From Naegleria gruberi (taxonomy: Eukaryota): a stretch of 64,000 nt of DNA. The stretch lies in assembly GCA_000004985.1 (NCBI GenBank), contig GG738883.1; one strand, written 5' to 3'. The stretch's first letter is position 1. Each line of letters opens with the position of its first letter. The notes under the pieces were generated by a model. That model had not been told where the DNA came from. It searched no databases and saw only the letters and a program-made list of their open reading frames with translations. Both the position numbers and the translations under genes were made by a program. This document shows positions 14,445-26,858 of the stretch, in pieces.

Positions 14445-16614
14445 TCATTCTTTAAGCATGCATGAATTGGTTTTCAAGTGGAAATCCCATTGCTTTTCAG
14501 TTCTGGTAATTGCATTGCCCAAAATTGTTTTAGTTTGAGTTTGAAGTGCTGCAATATACTTGTCCTTAACTTCCTTCTCGGAGGTGTTGGCATTTGCCTT
14601 CTTTGCTGCTTCTGAGCTGATCATTGATTCATCTAAAAAGCCAGCTGTATCAAGGAACTCAGTCATTGCTCCCATTAATTGATCGTACATAATGGATCTT
14701 CTAATCTTGGTTTCAAGTTTGGCAGTTTCTCTTTCAATATATTCAACCTGTTCCTTATCTAAAACTCTCATTAATTCTAACAAGACCACGAGGAGAGTGT
14801 GTCTCTTCTCATCCTCTGTAATTTGTTGCACAAGTGCCCTCAATGAGAAGAGAGAATAATCCCAAACAGTATTCGATTGTTGTAAAATGGTTGCTGCGTT
14901 TGTGTACAAACAATGGAAAGCATGTAGTAAATCTTCAGAAATGGAGAATGTTGTTACTTCATGATACAAGTGCTTGTTTCTTTCCACAAACTTTTCTCTC
15001 AGTAGATCAACCTTTATCTTTCTCATTTCGTCTCTATTGTCTTTTGGTGGGGCTGGTTCAGGTAAGTTATCAATCACTCTTTCTACTATATCATGCATTA
15101 CAATGTAAACTCCATTCTCCTCCTCCTTCTCTACAAAAGGTTCCAAATCCTGTTGTTCCTCTGAAATTACTACTCCTTTCAATTTTACCTCATCACAATC
15201 ACAATAAGCCTTTGGAATAGTTTCCAATTTAAATCCATCAGTAAAAATTCCTTCCATATCAGACTCGAATGAAAAGACAAACTTTTTGGTTTTTTGAGGA
15301 AGCAATATTCCCTTTCCTTCTGTAGAAAGCATAAATTTGGATTCAGCCCTCTTCTTTTGAAGTGATGTAATTGGCTCAACCTTAACCCATTTGTATTGGA
15401 TTGAGCAGCATCCTGTATTTTCAAGAACAACCTCCTTTTGAACCAATTCTCCTGGAATGGCATCAAAAAGAATATCATTTTCCGATAATTGAAAAGCAGG
15501 AGCTTCCATCTCTTCTTTTGCTTCCTCTTCCTTAATTTCGTATGGAAGATGAGAAGCAGAATATGTTTCCTCTTCGTCATATGTATTGTACTTTTCCTCA
15601 ATCTTTTGACCAATAACCTTCAGTTCTTCAATAAGAGAAGAGGGATCATGGGTTAGTTCCTTAGCTAATAGTTTTCCATATTTCTTTCTGAAATAGATTT
15701 AGAAATTTCGATTCAACCAGGGTACTTACTTTACATAGTCTGATTTCATTGACCTAATTCCCAAAGGTGTGTTATCCCTAATTAAACGTTCCAGTACATC
15801 TCAAAAACAATAGACAACTTACTCTGCAATAAATCTATCAGGATTTCTCACAGTAGCTGGCTTTCTAATTTTTTTCTCAATAATAGGACAAAACAAAGGA
15901 TATGGATAATTTCCAATTTTAACATATCTCACTCCATCGTCCTCAGGTACATCTACAATAACTTAAGTAAATGAAAAACATTAATACTAACTTCTAAGAG
16001 ATAATTCCCAACTCCATTCGTTGTGACGTTTTTCTACTGGAATGGAAGCTTCCAAAATATCTATTTCCTCTCTTTTTGCTCTGAATGCATCTTGACTTTC
16101 CATCACCAAAGAAGTTTTTGGCTATTATCCTCAATAAAACATTCAATCCCCAACCTACCTTTCCTGTTTTATTTGCCAACCGTTCTCCAATATCCCCCCA
16201 AGTTTGCAAATATTCTTCATACTTTCTGAGGGCCTTCTCTTGCATAAATTGTCTTCCTACTGCCTTATCGTCATGAATTGTTTTTTCCAACTTTTCCGAA
16301 AATTTTGGTTTTGTATTTCTAGAACTTTCCAAATTTTGCTTCATTCTCTTAAACGATTCATTATTAGCCTCCACATTTGAACACAATGATCCAGAACTCT
16401 GCAGTGTTGATTGAAGTTGTGATCGACTCATTGCAGTCATGTACTGATCCAATGATCCTAAAATTTCAATCTCCGATTTTGGAAGACGAGAAGCATCAAA
16501 TAAATTCGGAACCATACTAGGCTCCATTCCTGGTTCAACATTAGATAAATTCATCTCCATTGGAACCTCAACCCTTGGAGGTAATTGAGGAGCAGACTCT
16601 GGTTGTGGTGTCAT
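14445..16614 (-). CDS. Conserved hypothetical multi-exon protein (β-sandwich/MSP-like segment followed by a coiled-coil region)
   Basis: Large ORFs 14445..15509 and 15994..16614, connected by short exons in 15520-15990 with GTAAGT-type donors. No confident family assignment. Confidence 0.35.
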
Positions 16615-16736: not shown

Positions 16737-17744
16737 TTAGATTGTAATGACAAGTCTTTTACCTGGGTCAATATTTTCTTGCCATGCTGCAGCAACATTT
16801 TCCAAAGGCTCAACATGAGTTTCAATCTTGAGCTTTCCCTCAGCAACCCATTTGAATGTTTGAGGAAGAATTGAAGAGAAGAATTCCTTCATTCCACTTT
16901 CAGAAATACTGCCCAATCCACTTCCAAGTATTTCAATTGCTGTTGAACGTAATAAACTTGAAGGAATTGCAACATTTTCGCCTGCCATTGATCCAACTGT
17001 TACTACCTTAACTGGGTGAGAGAATCCGTGAAGATTTCCTGAACCTTTCAATGATTTGAAAATTAATTCAATTGGATGACCCCACAAGTAATCAATGACA
17101 ATATCAATTGGTGTCTCTTGATGAATTTGAGAGATTTGCTTGGTAATTTCTTCATCTGATTCTCCAAGAGAAATTACTTGATCAACTCCATATTCATTCT
17201 TTAAAATCTTTAAAGACTCTTGATTTCTACCTGTTGCAATTACCTTACTAGCTCCGTATAACTTTGCCAATTGAACTGCAACTCTTCCAGTAACTCCAGT
17301 AGCCCCATTCACCAAAACTACTTGACCACTCTTCAAGTGTGCCCTATCTGTCAATGCCAAACTTGCACCCATCACAGCATTTGGTAAAGCAGCAGCAGAA
17401 ACATCATCAATTTCATCAGGGAGAGGCACAACCTTACTCTTATCAACAATGGCCTTCTCTGCAATCATACCACTGATGCCAAATGCATAGACTCTCTGAT
17501 TAGTTGTCTCCAAATGTCCAACACCATCCACTCCAACAACTGTAGGCAATTCTGAATAATTGGTATAATGTTTGCCAGATGCTCTTATCTTATCTAAATT
17601 CTTAACAGAAGCTGCCTTGACAGAAATCACAACATGTTGATCCACATTCAATAGTTTCGGAAGAGGAAAATCCTTTTCAAATATTGGTACATCGCCGAGT
17701 TTATGTAAAACTGCTGCTCTCATTTTTTTGATTGTTGTTTTCAT
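16737..17744 (-). CDS. Medium-chain dehydrogenase/reductase family NAD(P)H quinone oxidoreductase (zeta-crystallin-like)
   Basis: 335-aa single-exon ORF with Rossmann motif VNGATGVTGRVAVQLAKLYGA and MDR-type N-terminal GroES-like region. Confidence 0.7.
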   Translation of the reverse strand: MKTTIKKMRAAVLHKLGDVPIFEKDFPLPKLLNVDQHVVISVKAASVKNLDKIRASGKHYTNYSELPTVVGVDGVGHLETTNQRVYAFGISGMIAEKAIVDKSKVVPLPDEIDDVSAAALPNAVMGASLALTDRAHLKSGQVVLVNGATGVTGRVAVQLAKLYGASKVIATGRNQESLKILKNEYGVDQVISLGESDEEITKQISQIHQETPIDIVIDYLWGHPIELIFKSLKGSGNLHGFSHPVKVVTVGSMAGENVAIPSSLLRSTAIEILGSGLGSISESGMKEFFSSILPQTFKWVAEGKLKIETHVEPLENVAAAWQENIDPGKRLVITI

Positions 17745-17899: not shown

Positions 17900-20800
17900 T
17901 TATGAATAAACTTTTAGTTTGCCTGTATCAGTAGAAACAAGCAGTAATTTGTGAAGAGGTAAATATTTAACGTCAGTGTAGTTTCCATTATTGGAATCGC
18001 TTGAAATATTGTTAAATGCTTGCCCTTCACAATATAAAACCTCTCTATTGTCTGAATCGATTGGAATTTCTCTCTTCTTTTTAGAAAGCTTTCTTTGTTT
18101 GTTCTTGAAGTCGTTCGAGGATTTAGAGTTCAATCTGTCAATTACATTTCTTGTAGAAACAAAACTGGAAGATTTACAGTAGAGAATTCTATCAGGTTGC
18201 AATGCAAATAATTGATCACATTCTGGTCTACTATAAAAATCGAACGAAATGATTGGAGCATTCGAAACTAAATCTTGATTGGTATTGTTGGAAACCTGGA
18301 ATGCCTTGATACACTTGGATGGTACAGAGTTTCTTGTATCCCAAACACGAATTAAGTCATTCTTATAGTCAGCTGCATCTTCTACTGGTCCTGTAATTGT
18401 GGAGGGGCTATTATCAAATGAAACAGTCTTACGGCAGCATGTGATAAAGTGTCCAGGTTTGGTTCCATCGTATGGCAATATTTTAGTAAGCTCTCCATTT
18501 TCGTGTGAACAGAATGAATCCAAAATCAATCCACTATGTTGTTCCATTAAAAATATCACGCCATTAGATAGTCCAATAGTTAAAAAGTTATCTCTTGGAT
18601 GACACTTGGAAATGCATTTGATGTTATGTTCTCCAATCACAGCAGAAGAGGTTGATGACATCATGTTTGGTACATAATTTGATGATTGGGATGTGAATAA
18701 CTTCCACTCAAAGGCACAAGACTTGGAAGGTTGTCTTAGATCATAAAATTGCACATTAGGAACAGACGAATAACTACTAGCCACAAGAATGTTAGGATTA
18801 TTTGTCAATGTTTCAAAAGTAATGAAATTCATAGTACCATTCAATTCTTGATTAATAGATGGAGATCCTGCACCAACAGTATACAAATATTTAGTTGTCT
18901 CAACATCAAATAAGTGAATATTTCCTCCACTATCCTTACACAGAAACTTGTTATCTGAAATGAACTTTACCTTGTCAACTTGAGATCTAAATAATTGCTT
19001 GTTAGTAGTTCCAGTATTTTGATAGCACAAATAGGTGCTCTCCATAGAAGAAGATTCCAAATTCCACAAACGTACAACAGGATTTGAGTGATGTCGCAAT
19101 AAACCTCCACCAGTTAATATAATTCTCTCATCTGATGGACAAACATCAATACATCTAAGTGATAAGTCATTAAATTTCAAATCTGAAAGCTCATACTCCA
19201 AAATTCCCTTAAATTTAACATCAGAAGTTTCTCTATCAAAACTATTGAATGCAAATGATTTTTCAAATATTTTTCCACTTGATAGTTGGTTATGAATGTA
19301 CCAAGAATTCTTTTCTGAGGTAACCTTTTTTGCTTTGGAGTATTGAATTTTAGGCTCCTTTGACTTGAGCTCATCTGCATCATTCTCTGAAAAATCAACA
19401 GTATCTTTTGTAAGACTGTCTTCGAGCATCTTACTATTCAATACAGCCTCTCTCATTGTAGAATTTCCAAAAACGCAACAGAGCTCTCTATACAAGGTGC
19501 AACCCATCTTGAAATGTCTATTATTTTTGAATCCACAATTTTCATCGTCATTACTCTCCTTGGTAGATTCATCCTCGACGGGACTATCATTGGTCGAAAT
19601 ATCCAAATTCTTATCATCAGATGCTGTAGAATCTCCACGTTTGAATCTCTCAAAGAATGATCGAATACCCTTTTTCTTTGTAACCTCATTATTTGTAGAA
19701 TTAGCTTGAATGGTCTGGGCCTGAATCGCTTCTTCATCAACTAAATCGCTGGCTAATGGTTGGCTATTTACTATAGGATTCTTGGAAAGATTTGCAAAAG
19801 ATGGTGCCACAGCAAGTTGTTGTGAAAAGTATCCATCCAAGTAAACGGCAGAGCACAAGATTTTTCTAAATGTAGATTTAGAGTTTTGGAATATTTGAAT
19901 TCTAACTTTAAGGTCACAAATATGGAAGAGTCTACACAAAAAGTGAGTAATTCTCTCAAAAATGTCCAAAATGTAAACAAATTGATTATTGGAATCATCA
20001 TTTTGAATAGCTAAATTATAGGTTGCCTCCATAATATTATTAATCAAGACTTGATTTGTTTGTAAAATATTATTCACAACAAGAGTTTGATTTGTGGTTC
20101 TTTCGAGAATATTCTCTAACAAGTCAATAATATTAGTTGCATTCCTCTTTAAATTTTCAAGATTTGTTATAGAACTAGAGGTTAGATCGTATGTCTTGAT
20201 TTCTTGTAAAATGATAGAAAAGAATTTAGATGCATAGTAACTAACAATTGTTCCATATCCCAAATTGGAGCTCAAATTATTCAATAGTAAAAAGATACTC
20301 TCATCGAATTGATAATGTCTAATCTTTTTTCTCAGTTTGAATAGTAATGGATCCAAAATGTATTGTATCGAAACAATAATTCCAAAATCGTTACATAATT
20401 TACACAGTGTAGCACATATCTTTTTGGAAATTTCTGGAAACTTGACACAATTAGTGAATAATCCTTCAATAAAGAATGGTAATAATTGTTCTAAGAATAA
20501 ACGCTTTTGATCCTTAGTTGTTGGATTAGTGATACCCTCAGAGTATGTGGTTGATGATGTTTGAGAAGCCTTACTATAAGGTTTGTGTGTAACATCAGAC
20601 AATATTACATTATAAATTAATGAAGAAAATGAATATGAATACAAGTTGAGAGGTAGTAACAACAAGTCTGATCTTTCTGGAATGGTATTGTTTGGTGATG
20701 AAGATTCATTATCTGAGGAAGATGTGCTATTTAAAATGGACTCTACTCTTTCATTTTCCATATACAATTGATAGAGTCTCAATTTAAGTATCTTTTTGGC

Positions 20801-23479
20801 CGAGTCACACTCTTTGAATTTGGAAAGGAATTTCTCTCTCGAATATCTTACCATTCCTCTCAAAATTTCAATACCATAAGTCCATGGTTGGATGTGAACA
20901 AAATGATTTGGTGAATTTTTTTCCATCTTTTTCACAAAGAACATGTGGAGAATGTGAGGAAGAACTAAATCGAGAGCATCAGGTGGAAGAGCCATAATAC
21001 TCTCTTGGAATTCTTGTGAATTATTTGGTGGTTTGATTTGTCTCAATACAAAATTATATCTTTCCAAATGACTCTGAAAGAGGTATAAATTTGAGAGAAC
21101 CCAATGACAATACTTGAAATATTCTGGAAAATATTTTTTGGATTGGTTAATAAAGAGTGCCTTCTTTCCTTTTGAAAGATTGATATCAATTAACTTTTCA
21201 ACAATGGAACGAGCAGGTTGACTGATCTTTTTCAATGCAGGTACTTCTGGTTGATGGTTCAACATTCCAGTCTCCCTAATATACTTTTCAAGAGACCTCG
21301 TATTAAATAATGGCTCAAAAGTATAGAGAGAGGCTAGCAAACATCCAACAGCAAACATGTCATCATTATAAAGCTCGCCTTTGGATTGAACTCGAGAACG
21401 ATTAATCTTTTCAATGAATGGTACAACATGATAGGCAGAGCTGGTAAAGTACTTGCTACTGAATTTGACAGAATTTTCATACAAGTGCATTCTCTCCATA
21501 ATAGAATTTGATGTGGAATATCTAGGGGGGTGTGGTTCGAAGAATAATTGAACAAATCCAAAACGTGAAGGATACAAGTCGTTATTTTCCTTTCTCAACA
21601 TGACATTTTTAGCTTCAATGGCATGGTGTCCACTAAGCTTGTATCCAAAAATCAAATCAATCCAATGATGAATATTCTGACTCACATAGTCACTCTCCAG
21701 GGCAGCTTTATGCTTTTGAATAAATTCTTCAGGTGTAGAAGCCCACGGCGGCAATACTAAATCAGTCATGTCTGTATGAATGGAAGTGAACATGTTCGGA
21801 TCAGTGAAAAATTCTGGAATGCATTCATCTGGAGTCCACTGATAGAGACGAACAATGGAATTTGGATATTCTTTTGGTTCATAGTTTTGTCTGACAAATT
21901 TCCTCAATGCACTAATAGAAACTCTTCTTGCCTTGTAGATAAAGTAGGTAATTTCAGAAAGTGGCTCTGTAACGTGATGAGGATTATCTGGTGATTGATA
22001 GGTAAAATCCAACATTTCATCTCCCTTATTGAGTCTGAATTTAGTTTTGGTTAAATCTCTCCATTCAACACGTGAGTTTGGATCGGTTGGGTCACTCTCA
22101 AAATCAATAATCCATGGCAATACAGGATGATACTGTTGATCACCAAGTCTCCTCCCAGCAAGAGCATTAAGTTTCATCAAGTAGTCAAAATTTGAAATTT
22201 TACCCTCCTGCCATAAGAGAACTAGATCTTTGGTTCTATTCTCGGAAATGTTCTGTGGTGACAATAGGGTACTATTATTTCCAGCTGTACCAGTATTGGA
22301 TGTTTTTGAGGGTGATTTAAATTCTGCCATTGGTGTTTGTAAAACGTGATGATGATGATCAGAGATGTGTTCTGGAGTATAGAGTATATCCTGTCCAATA
22401 ATTGAAATCCACAACATTTCATTGATTAGAATATTATTGGGTATTAATTTTCCATGAGCAATATTATTCTTGTGACAATGTGAAACTGCCTGTAATAATT
22501 GATAGAATAAAAATCTTCTACGAATGTCATCTAAATTAATTGAATAAAAAGTTAATGAAATAATGAAACAATTATTAAAAAAAAACAATATAAAAACAAA
22601 CCTGTTTCAAGAAGAACCTTATTGAATTGAATCAATTCTTCCCAAGTATAATTGTACATTTCCAAAACAATAAACCAAGCATTTTTACTTTCATAAACAT
22701 CGTATAATAATGGTATATTAGCGTGCTATAAATAATAGTATTTCAATAATTATCATTTCCAAATGAATAAATAATTGATAATAAACAAATTTTAATAATG
22801 TTGATAAGTTAAATATTTAAAAATAATTATAACATACCTTTGGAATAAAAGGACCGTCAAATAATATAAAAGTTTCATCCAAATCCCCATGTGAAGGATT
22901 ATAAAAAGTATAATCATCCAAAATTAATTGATTTAAATGATAAATTTGTGATAATGAATGATGTATGGCCTTTCTAATTGAATGATTAGATTTTCCATCT
23001 CCCATTTCAAATTGTTTCGGAATGACTCGTACCACTACATTTACTTCATCGGGTAATAATGAAAGTGGAATACTATTATTTGAAATGATATTATGATGAT
23101 TAGAATTGTTATTATTGTTACTATTATTAACATTGTTATTATCCAAATTATTATTATTCAAATTATTCACATTATTTTCTTCATGTAATTGATCCTGTTG
23201 ATCTTGTTGATTCATTGTTGGAGATATTGATGATGAAATTGATGGTGATGAATTTAATTCATCTTGTTGTGATAAATTTTCATCATCTGTTAACACATGA
23301 TTATCAAAAGTAGGCCTCTTTTTATAAATCTTGGATCGTTTACTATTATACATTTTGCAACAAGCATAGGAACATTTTCTCGTATATTCGGGACTCAACA
23401 TGTACTGATACTCGATGAGAGTCGGCGAGAGATCCTGTTCAATATATTCTCTCACTTGACTCGCATTTAAATTTCCCAT
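17900..23479 (-). CDS. Giant kinase-like + BEACH + WD40 protein (WDR81/BEACH-family-like), N-terminal MGxxxS myristoylation motif
   Basis: Exons 22838..23479 (MGNLNASQ..., poly-Asn tract), 22602..22725 (HANIPLLYDVYESKNAWFIVLEMYNY, a kinase N-lobe-like segment) and 17900..22530. The kinase-like region lacks HRD/DFG but has HGKLIPNNILIN. BEACH core: NFDYLMKLNALAGRRLGDQQYHPVLPWIID...WIDLIFGYKLSGHHAIEAKNV. C-terminal WD40-like repeats. Phase-consistent GTATGT/GTTTGT introns. Confidence 0.65.
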
Positions 23480-24344: not shown

Positions 24345-26858
24345 ATGGTCAAATTCAGTATTGATGAAATCCGTAATATTATGGACAAGCAACCACAAAT
24401 CCGTAATATGTCTGTCATTGCTCACGTCGATCACGGTAAATCCACCTTGACTGACTCCTTGGTTGCTGCTGCCGGTATTATTGCTCAAGCTAATGCTGGT
24501 CAACAACGTTTCATGGATACCAGAGATGACGAACAAGATAGATGTATCACCATTAAGTCTACTTCTATCTCCCTCTACTATAAGAAGCCAGCTGAAGATG
24601 GTACTGAAACTGAATATTTGATTAACTTGATCGATTGTCCAGGTCACGTTGACTTTTCATCTGAAGTTACTGCTGCTTTGAGAGTTACTGACGGTGCTTT
24701 GGTCGTCGTTGATGCCGTTTCTGGTGTCTGTGTCCAAACTGAAACTGTCTTGAGACAAGCTTTGCAAGAAAGAATTAGACCTGTCCTCATGATGAACAAG
24801 TTGGACAGAGCTTTCCTCGAACTCCAATTGCAACCTGAAGATGCTTATACCAACTTTAACAAGGCTATTGAATCTGTTAACGTTGTCATTTCCACTTATG
24901 ATGATGGTGGTTTCGGTGATCCACAAGTTTACCCAGAAAAGGGTACCGTTGCTTTCGGTTCTGGTCTCCATTGTTGGGGTTTCACTTTGAAGAGATTCGC
25001 CAAGATGTACGCCAAGAAATTCGGTGTTGCTGAAGAAAAGTTGATGAAGAAATTCTGGGGTGATAACTTCTTTGATGCTGCTAACAAGAAATGGGTTAAG
25101 GACTCTCAAGGTGGTAAATTGGTCAGAGGTTTCTGTCAATTCGTCTTGGATCCTATTTACAAGGTTTTCCACTCTTGTATCAATGATGATAAGCCTCTCC
25201 TCGAAAAGGTCTTGCCAGTTTTGGGTATTACATTGTCTGCTGATGAAAAACAACAAAAGGATAAGAAGTTGATGAAGTGTGTTATGGCTAAATGGTTGCC
25301 AGCTGCTGAAGCTCTCTTGGAAATGATTGTCACTCACTTGCCTTCACCAAAGGTTGCTCAAGGTTACAGATATGAACATTTGTACAACGGTCCACTCGAT
25401 GATAAGTATTGTCAAGCTGTTAAGAATTGTGATCCTAATGGTCCATTGATGATGTACGTCTCTAAGATGGTTCCTACTAACGATAAGGGTAGATTCTATG
25501 CTTTCGGTAGAGTTTTCGCTGGTAAGGTTAGAACTGGTCAAAAGGCTAGACTTATGGGTCCTAACTTTGAACATGGTAAGAATACTGACTTGTTCGATGA
25601 TAAGACTATCCAAAGAACTGTCGTTATGATGGGTCGTTATACTGAATCTGTTGATGATATTCCTTGTGGTAACGTTGCTGGTTTGGTCGGTGTTGATCAA
25701 TTCTTGATCAAGACTGGTACTATCACTGATTCTGATTGTAAGGATGCTTGTCCATTCAGAGATATGAAGTACTCTGTTTCCCCTGTCGTCAGAGTTGCCG
25801 TCGAACCAAAGAATCAAGCTGATTTGCCAAAGGTTATTGAAGGTATGAAGAGATTGGCTAAGTCTGATCCTTTGGTCGTCTGTACTATCAATGAAGAATC
25901 TGGTGAAAAGATTATTGCTGGTGCCGGTGAATTGCACTTGGAAATTTGTTTGAAGGATTTGAGAGACGATTTCTGTGGTGGTATTGAATTGAAGATTTCC
26001 GACCCAGTCGTTGCTTTCAGAGAAACTGTTTCTGAAGCTTCCCCATGTGATACTTTGACTAAGTCTCCAAACAAGCACAACAGATTGTACATGAATGCTG
26101 AACCACTCCCAGAAGAAATGCAAGATGATATTGAACAAGGTAAAATTACTGCTAACGATGAAGCCAAGAAGAGAGCTAAGTACTTGCAAGACCAATACGG
26201 TTGGGATCAAGACCAAGCCAGAAAGATTTGGTCATTCGGTCCAGACCAAACTGGTCCAAACTTGATGGTTGACGTTACCAAGGCTGTCCAATATTTGAAC
26301 GAAATTAAGGACTCTGTCAACTCTGGTTTCCAAATTGCTGCTAAGGAAGGTCCACTCTGTAATGAAACATGTCGTGGTGTTAGATACAACTTGACTGATG
26401 TTACTTTGCACACTGATGCTATCCACAGAGGTGCTGGTCAAATCTTGCACACTGCCAGAAGAGGTTGTCAAGCTGCTCACTGTAACTCTGCTCCAAGAAT
26501 TTTGGAACCAATCTTTTTGGTTGAAATCCAATGTCCTGACTCTGTTTTGGGTTCAGTCTACTCTGTCATGAACAGAAGAAGAGGTACAATTGATCAAGCT
26601 ATCCAAAGACCAGGTACTCCAATGTTCAACGTTAAGGCTTACCTCCCTGTCTTGGAATCATTCAACTTCTCCACCTTCTTGAGATCTGAAACTGGTGGTG
26701 AAGCTTTCCCACAATGCGTTTTCCACCATTGGCAAATTGTTGGTGGTGATCCTTGGGATAAGACTTCAAAGATCAGAGAATTGGTTGTTGATACTCGTAA
26801 GCGTAAGGGTTTGAAGGAAGAAATTCCAACCGTCGAAGAACTCTCCGACAAGTTGTAA
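24345..26858 (+). CDS. EFT: Translation elongation factor 2 (eEF2)
   Basis: 837-aa intronless ORF: [40 protein letters not shown]..., G1-G5 GTPase motifs, and the diphthamide-region His ([12 protein letters not shown]). Confidence 0.95.

Follow-up and report, generated by a model that had tools for sequence, protein, structure and literature searches.

The 64,000-nucleotide stretch analyzed here (hereafter, the window) comes from contig GG738883.1 of the Naegleria gruberi assembly GCA_000004985.1 and is AT-rich eukaryotic DNA of about 34% GC. Its minus strand carries, at positions 17900-23479, a three-exon gene for a protein of 1798 amino acids (aa) that is almost certainly a member of the WDR81/GFS12/LvsG/SORF-2 family. 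From its N- to its C-terminus, the protein has a myristoylation consensus, a pseudokinase with a BEACH domain inside its activation segment, a HEAT-type solenoid, and a seven-bladed WD40 propeller. Exon 1 (22838..23479; all features of this gene lie on the minus strand) spans codons 1-214, with the start codon, the myristoylation consensus, kinase strands β1-β2, an Asn-rich insert, and β3-αC-β4; its open reading frame (ORF) begins at the first ATG after a stop, and its donor site reads AAG/GTATGT. Intron 1 (22726..22837; 112 nt, GT..AG, 12% GC) is followed by the small exon 2 (22602..22725; 124 nt), which provides codons 215-255 plus 1 nt, encodes the kinase β4/β5-hinge-αD segment, and is contained in the Pfam Pkinase match. 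Intron 2 (22531..22601; 71 nt, GT..AG, 13% GC) precedes exon 3 (17900..22530), which holds codons 256-1798 and the stop codon at 17900-17902. Joined together, the three exons form a 5397-nt ORF with no internal stops, and the product shows 100% identity across 100% of its length to NAEGRDRAFT_80587, a hypothetical protein of N. gruberi in GenBank that UniRef names BEACH domain-containing protein. The original prediction, made from the DNA letters alone, had proposed this three-exon gene for a 1.8-thousand-residue protein, and its coordinates proved exact.

The gene model agrees with comparative evidence. The N. lovaniensis orthologue is 64% identical and shares the three-exon layout: its exon 1 ends at the matching site, and its exon 2 is also 124 nt long, has the same splice borders, and is 83% identical at the nucleotide level. 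The small exon at 22602-22725, flagged in the original prediction for confirmation, thus has a counterpart. The introns have diverged in both length and sequence; intron 1 of N. lovaniensis occupies the matching position but is 77 rather than 112 nt long and is unrelated in sequence. The N. fowleri and Willaertia magna proteins have the same N-terminus and layout as the N. gruberi protein, and a Percolomonas transcriptome protein (P0006) runs contiguously over the region equivalent to the exon joins. Farther away, the N-terminus encoded by exon 1 (MGN..., an 'ACC' segment, and β3) can be aligned to the start of family proteins from fungi, dictyostelids, and other groups. We weighed the alternative that the 1798-aa model is an artefact that fuses a small upstream gene, represented by exon 1, with a BEACH-WD40 gene; two introns do part exon 1 from the remainder, exon 1 holds a long low-complexity tract, and the longest uninterrupted ORF begins only inside exon 3. 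However, a complete kinase fold takes exons 1, 2, and 3 together, exon 2 and its splice sites are kept while the introns diverge, and both the N-terminal alignment and the shared layout in N. lovaniensis, N. fowleri, and Willaertia speak against a fusion, which we therefore regard as most improbable. Transcript evidence assigning exon 22838-23479 to another gene had been named in advance as the finding that would overturn the model; on the comparative evidence and because the kinase fold spans all exons, such an assignment is very unlikely, and the mis-joined model was rejected on N-terminal alignment, fold completeness, and the conserved exon 2.

The domain architecture was examined by Pfam and PDB sequence searches, by AlphaFold models of residues 1-782 (predicted template modelling score, pTM, 0.71) and 700-1798, and by family comparisons consisting of 28-sequence alignments, with residue counts made over 26 family members. 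Pfam recognized Beach at residues 362-567 (E 8.6e-45), in agreement with the clear BEACH core claimed originally, and Pkinase at residues 214-293 in two stretches (E 3.2e-16, over the curated cut-off). In the model of residues 1-782, an N-terminal helix is followed by β1-β2, a disordered insert, β3, αC, β4-5, αE, and β7-8 up to about residue 305, then by a disordered linker, the BEACH domain at about 355-600, and helices αF-αI, so that kinase elements flank BEACH on both sides. The kinase N-lobe begins with the end of the N-terminal helix and β1-β2 (residues ~18-46; 23342..23428), where no Gly-rich loop is present; the two strands, at residues 22-27 and 38-44, are modelled with a predicted local distance difference test score (pLDDT) of 70-80 and align to the 'ACCVV' segment of fungal members. 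Between β2 and β3 lies a low-complexity insert rich in Asn, Gln, and Ser (residues 53-141; 23057..23323; pLDDT <50). N. lovaniensis has a different tract, rich in Ser and Thr, in place of this insert of about 90 residues, and Willaertia lacks the insert; it looks like a disordered loop that evolves fast. The pseudokinase continues from β3 to β8 (residues 142-305; 22382..23056, a range that includes both introns) and leads into the disordered kinase-to-BEACH linker (residues 306-354; 22235..22381; pLDDT <50), in which a run of four His (DHHHHV) falls within the predicted disorder.

The BEACH domain itself (residues ~355-600; 21497..22234) has no PH domain before it and sits between the DFG-equivalent and subdomain IX, that is, in the kinase activation segment. 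Beyond it, the pseudokinase C-lobe resumes (residues ~601-735; 21092..21496), from subdomain IX, DDMFAVGCLLASLY (645-658), to a family and Vps15-type tail, KYFPEYF (721-727). The PDB sequence search found a second kinase stretch there (residues 642-665, covering DDMFAVGCLLASLY), and the family alignments carry the C-lobe on to the conserved 'YFPEYF' at 721-727. The claim that the kinase-like region is degenerate and lacks catalytic motifs was thus upheld, whereas its confinement to two small exons was not: the fold reaches into exon 3 and is taken up again after BEACH. Downstream, residues ~736-1300 (19397..21091) form a HEAT-type α-solenoid, which is all-helical in the model, with a disordered acidic and Ser-rich stretch near its end; a family profile restricted to the solenoid matched the HEAT repeats of the PP2A A subunit (5.8e-13). 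The C-terminus (residues ~1366-1798; 17903..19201) is a seven-bladed WD40-type β-propeller, with 28 strands in 7 groups of 4 in the 700-1798 model. By Pfam, the WD signal of the Naegleria protein is weak (ANAPC4_WD40 at 1.3e-5), and the Pfam search gave no PF00400 (WD40) match, although the orthologues do carry PF00400. Nevertheless, a Foldseek search with the solenoid and WD40 model matched WD40 propellers at E ~1e-10, which together with the modelled blades bears out the WD repeats that had been proposed.

In the best matches outside Heterolobosea, the proteins were named WDR81 (Mortierella, insects, and vertebrates), GFS12 (many plants), or 'inactive serine/threonine-protein kinase lvsG' (Balamuthia). 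In these one-way searches, the matches had E values of 1e-85 to 1e-108 and the same Pkinase, Beach, and WD40 content, consistent with the WDR81-type architecture proposed at the outset. An exhaustive search returned 369 cluster representatives at E<=1e-30, and the family is large, pan-eukaryotic, and already named. The features that were looked for in a member, namely BEACH without PH, BEACH in the kinase activation segment, a degenerate kinase, and a solenoid followed by a WD40 propeller, were all found in the Naegleria protein. A classical PH-BEACH protein was considered and rejected: the Pfam search of the Naegleria protein found neither a PH nor a ConA-like domain, and the PDB sequence search did not align the PH portion of constructs 1t77 and 1mi1. 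Dictyostelium LvsG was listed in 2006 as a borderline kinome member (PMC1420674). Literature searches for a Naegleria BEACH domain, and for GFS12 with a BEACH and a kinase domain, returned nothing.

All four features expected of an active kinase are substituted or absent in the Naegleria protein: the Gly-rich loop is missing, the β3 Lys is replaced by R151, HRD by H281-G282-K283, and DFG by G301-Q302-D303. The gatekeeper is L235, and the catalytic-loop Asn is kept as N288. Among the aligned family members, the HRD Asp is retained in 2 of 26, and the Gly of a nearly constant 'HG' pair in 24 of 26. One could still ask whether the domain is an active, atypical protein kinase, since Pkinase scores over its Pfam cut-off and both the His of HRD and N288 are kept. 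Against this stand the lack of a Gly-rich loop, the changes of β3 Lys to Arg, catalytic Asp to Lys, and DFG Asp to Gly, a BEACH domain of about 300 residues in place of the activation segment, and the free variation of the catalytic positions across the family. We give catalytic activity only a very slight chance, and it was rejected as a candidate on the four lost features. By its residues, the WDR81/GFS12/LvsG family as a whole is non-catalytic.

The protein begins with MGNLNAS (23459..23479), a predicted N-myristoylation consensus read from the sequence (G2, N3, A6, S7). It had been described as matching MGxxx(S/T). This holds for the broader PROSITE-type pattern, G-{EDRKHPFYW}-x2-[STAGCN]-{P}, but not for the strict one, as Ala occupies position 6 and Ser position 7. 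The N. lovaniensis and N. fowleri orthologues begin with MGNLSST, which fits both patterns, and the MGN... start is kept in N. lovaniensis, N. fowleri, and Willaertia. Starts of the MG[NQ]xx[ST] type recur in Discoba (Heterolobosea, including P0008, and the jakobid Stygiella), in Amoebozoa (four dictyostelids and Balamuthia, as MGQxx[ST]), in several Mucoromycota, in the choanoflagellate Salpingoeca urceolata and the ichthyosporean Chromosphaera, in Prasinococcus, in the lycophyte Diphasiastrum (a GFS12-like protein, MGQAKS), and in 'Rmarinus' and unnamed metagenomic family members. The consensus is absent in animals, seed plants, Mortierellales, and Glomeromycota. Because the signal is spread over eukaryotic supergroups, it is probably ancestral to the WDR81/GFS12/LvsG family and was lost several times. 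Family proteins recorded with the N-terminal signal were P0008, P0013, P0019, P0034, P0049, P0075, P0085, P0094, P0125, P0135, P0162, P0219, and P0248. In two further proteins, P0012 (residue 32) and P0017 (residue 29), the conserved MG... start sits 28-31 residues inside the annotated N-terminus, which suggests that the annotated start codons lie too far upstream. We found no statement of a broad conservation of the consensus in the WDR81 family in the searchable literature, and a search for WDR81 together with myristoylation gave only reovirus and unrelated papers.

A resemblance to Vps15, noted originally from the combination of pseudokinase and myristoylation signal, was also recovered, as Vps15 ranked first, by small margins, in three independent comparisons, among them the kinase profile and Foldseek. 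When a BEACH-free family kinase profile was compared with 1600 PDB kinase chains, yeast Vps15 came out on top (75.6 bits, E 3.6e-20), followed by CDKL2 (71.2 bits) and human PIK3R4 (67.4 bits); the match to yeast Vps15 consisted of two stretches and continued into its 'FPDYF' tail. In the Foldseek search with the solenoid and propeller model, human VPS15 provided matches 1 and 2, over about 1180 columns with low template modelling (TM) scores. Common ancestry of the WDR81/GFS12/LvsG family with Vps15 is likely, and Pankiv et al. 2024 (PMC11554844) have already called WDR81 VPS15-like, with BEACH set into the pseudokinase's activation loop. The Naegleria protein and Vps15/PIK3R4 have in common the Gly2 myristoylation signal (predicted in Naegleria) and the order kinase-HEAT-WD40. 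One could then suppose that the protein is none other than the Vps34 regulatory subunit Vps15 of Naegleria, with an acquired BEACH insertion, as the N-terminal MG, the domain order, and the top match would suggest. However, Vps15 lacks BEACH, has Arg as its gatekeeper, with GTP bound, and retains both HGD and the DFG-type Asp, whereas the Naegleria kinase is split by the BEACH domain and has HGK, GQD, and L235. The Arg gatekeeper, described by Cook et al. as unique to VPS15 homologues, occurs in 0 of the 26 aligned family members. In addition, the close matches are all WDR81/GFS12/LvsG proteins; human has a separate Vps15 alongside its protein of this kind, and the Dictyostelium kinome lists both LvsG and a VPS15 family. 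Identity with Vps15 is scarcely conceivable and was rejected on the gatekeeper, HGK/GQD, and the interruption by BEACH.

The reading that best accounts for these data, and which we hold to be quite probable, is that the Naegleria protein is an orthologue of WDR81/GFS12/LvsG/SORF-2 and a Vps15-like scaffold that would restrain the class III phosphoinositide 3-kinase (PI3K-III). In worm and human, SORF-2/WDR81 and SORF-1/WDR91 bind Beclin1 and make the PI3K complex less active, and their loss raises endosomal phosphatidylinositol 3-phosphate (PtdIns3P), enlarges early endosomes, and delays their conversion to late endosomes (PMC4738380). The N-myristate of VPS15 is an autoinhibitory switch, either tucked into the pseudokinase N-lobe or released to membranes (bioRxiv 10.1101/2023.09.28.559894). 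The Naegleria protein is a large non-catalytic scaffold on a Vps15-like chassis and, by analogy with the animal and worm proteins, may reside on endosomal or phagosomal membranes; a myristate on Gly2 would help to anchor it and might act as a switch, as in VPS15. Together with a partner resembling WDR91/SORF-1, it would attach to Beclin/Atg6 within the PI3K-III complex and so could damp PtdIns3P synthesis, which would allow early compartments to become late ones; for an amoeba that feeds by phagocytosis, the role might mostly concern phagosome and endosome maturation. That the protein has this specific role, restraining PI3K-III as a scaffold anchored by myristate to endosomes or phagosomes, we consider about as likely as not.

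Several points weigh against this reading. The myristoylation is predicted, and in Naegleria position 6 is Ala rather than Ser or Thr. Single-sequence searches did not show the preference for Vps15. In the Foldseek search with the N-terminal model, Vps15 was outside the top 50 and the match to kinases covered only about 160 columns, as the local alignment is interrupted by BEACH. The solenoid-only profile, which detects the PP2A-A HEAT repeats, found no Vps15; no solenoid sequence similarity to Vps15 is thus detectable, and the long single stretch matched to Vps15 is not evidence of solenoid homology. The role is carried over from animals, which are evolutionarily very far from Naegleria, and in HeLa cells tagged human WDR81 was spread diffusely through the cytosol (PMC11554844), so that residence on membranes cannot be taken for granted. 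The protein might also be a family member with another job than PI3K-III regulation, such as an adaptor in autophagy or aggrephagy, a cargo-sorting adaptor, or a factor that, like plant GFS12, serves vacuolar protein sorting. A separate role in aggrephagy, with p62 and LC3C, has been reported for WDR81 (PMC5412561), BEACH proteins in general have been proposed as cargo-sorting adaptors (PMC11554844), and GFS12 is linked to plant immunity in Teh et al. 2015, according to the citation of that work in PMC6905379. Yet p62 and LC3C are animal-specific partners, and no role other than the PI3K-III link has been shown in both worm and human, two distant animals (PMC4738380); this link is also the one that fits the Vps15-like chassis. 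We therefore consider another job rather unlikely, though still a serious competitor to restraint of PI3K-III.

Much of this was already known: GenBank holds the gene, the animal, plant, and amoeba members of the family have names, and a design resembling Vps15, in which BEACH occupies the activation loop, has been published, so the gain in discovery is small. The one element not found in the searchable literature, of modest comparative value, is how widely the predicted N-terminal myristoylation consensus is conserved. The heterolobosean orthologue confirms the early-eukaryote age of the pseudokinase-with-BEACH scaffold, and the recurrence of the Gly2 signal points to an ancestral protein with a lipid anchor, as in Vps15. 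WDR81 is a human neurodevelopmental disease gene, and a lipid anchor would offer a cheap, testable clue to how it meets membranes and the PI3K-III complex. A bolder proposal, which we put forward as a speculation and think doubtful, is that the WDR81/GFS12/LvsG family is an ancient Vps15 paralogue that still bears the N-terminal myristoyl switch of Vps15 in most unicellular lineages. If so, family proteins might be lipid-anchored Vps15 mimics that engage the Beclin/Atg6 arm without activating Vps34, and the inhibitory effect in animals would thereby be explained. We found no paper stating this Vps15-decoy idea in the literature searched.

Upstream of the BEACH gene, at a distance of 865 bp and divergently oriented, is an intronless elongation factor 2 (EF-2) gene (24345-26858, plus strand, 837 aa). 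The EF-2 neighbour and its orientation are kept in N. lovaniensis (L001 1-2339), and the two genes therefore probably share a bidirectional promoter region. On the other side, an ORF of 335 aa resembling zinc-type alcohol dehydrogenase/quinone reductase (16737-17744, minus strand) starts about 155 bp past the stop codon of the BEACH gene. The downstream neighbour in N. lovaniensis (L001 9020-11651) is instead a 720-aa protein kinase, and synteny thus breaks on this side. Farther downstream, a 354-aa ORF (14445-15509, minus strand) matches the MYCBP-associated protein family (MYCBPAP; E 2.6e-18).

Among known BEACH proteins, the classical ones (neurobeachin, LRBA, and LYST, and Dictyostelium LvsA-F) share with the Naegleria protein a homologous BEACH domain, about 30% identical to the solved BEACH domains of NBEA and LRBA, and a C-terminal WD40 region. 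They differ in that they combine PH and BEACH in one unit, carry a ConA-like domain, and lack a kinase fold (PMC11554844), whereas the Naegleria BEACH lies inside a kinase fold and has neither a PH nor a ConA-like match. GFS12/BCHC1 of land plants and LvsG of Dictyostelium and Balamuthia are closer, as they combine kinase, BEACH, and WD40 in 1.6-2.0 thousand residues, and the dictyostelid, Balamuthia, and lycophyte proteins also share the MGQ-type start (MGQxx[ST] and MGQAKS). Unlike these, seed-plant GFS12 proteins start with M..CFECLQR, outside the myristoylation consensus, and some plant and dictyostelid members keep HGD where Naegleria has HGK. In comparison with WDR81/SORF-2, the animal proteins lack the Gly2 signal, many have C-G-x for H-G-x, and their solenoids carry long acidic inserts, whereas the Naegleria protein has the Asn-rich insert in its N-lobe and a very divergent propeller. 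Nevertheless, the two share a pseudokinase with BEACH in its activation segment, an α-solenoid, and a C-terminal WD40 propeller (PMC11554844), with 40-55% identity in BEACH and, in common, the H-G-x motif of the catalytic loop, 'LW..L.G', and 'FP.YF'.

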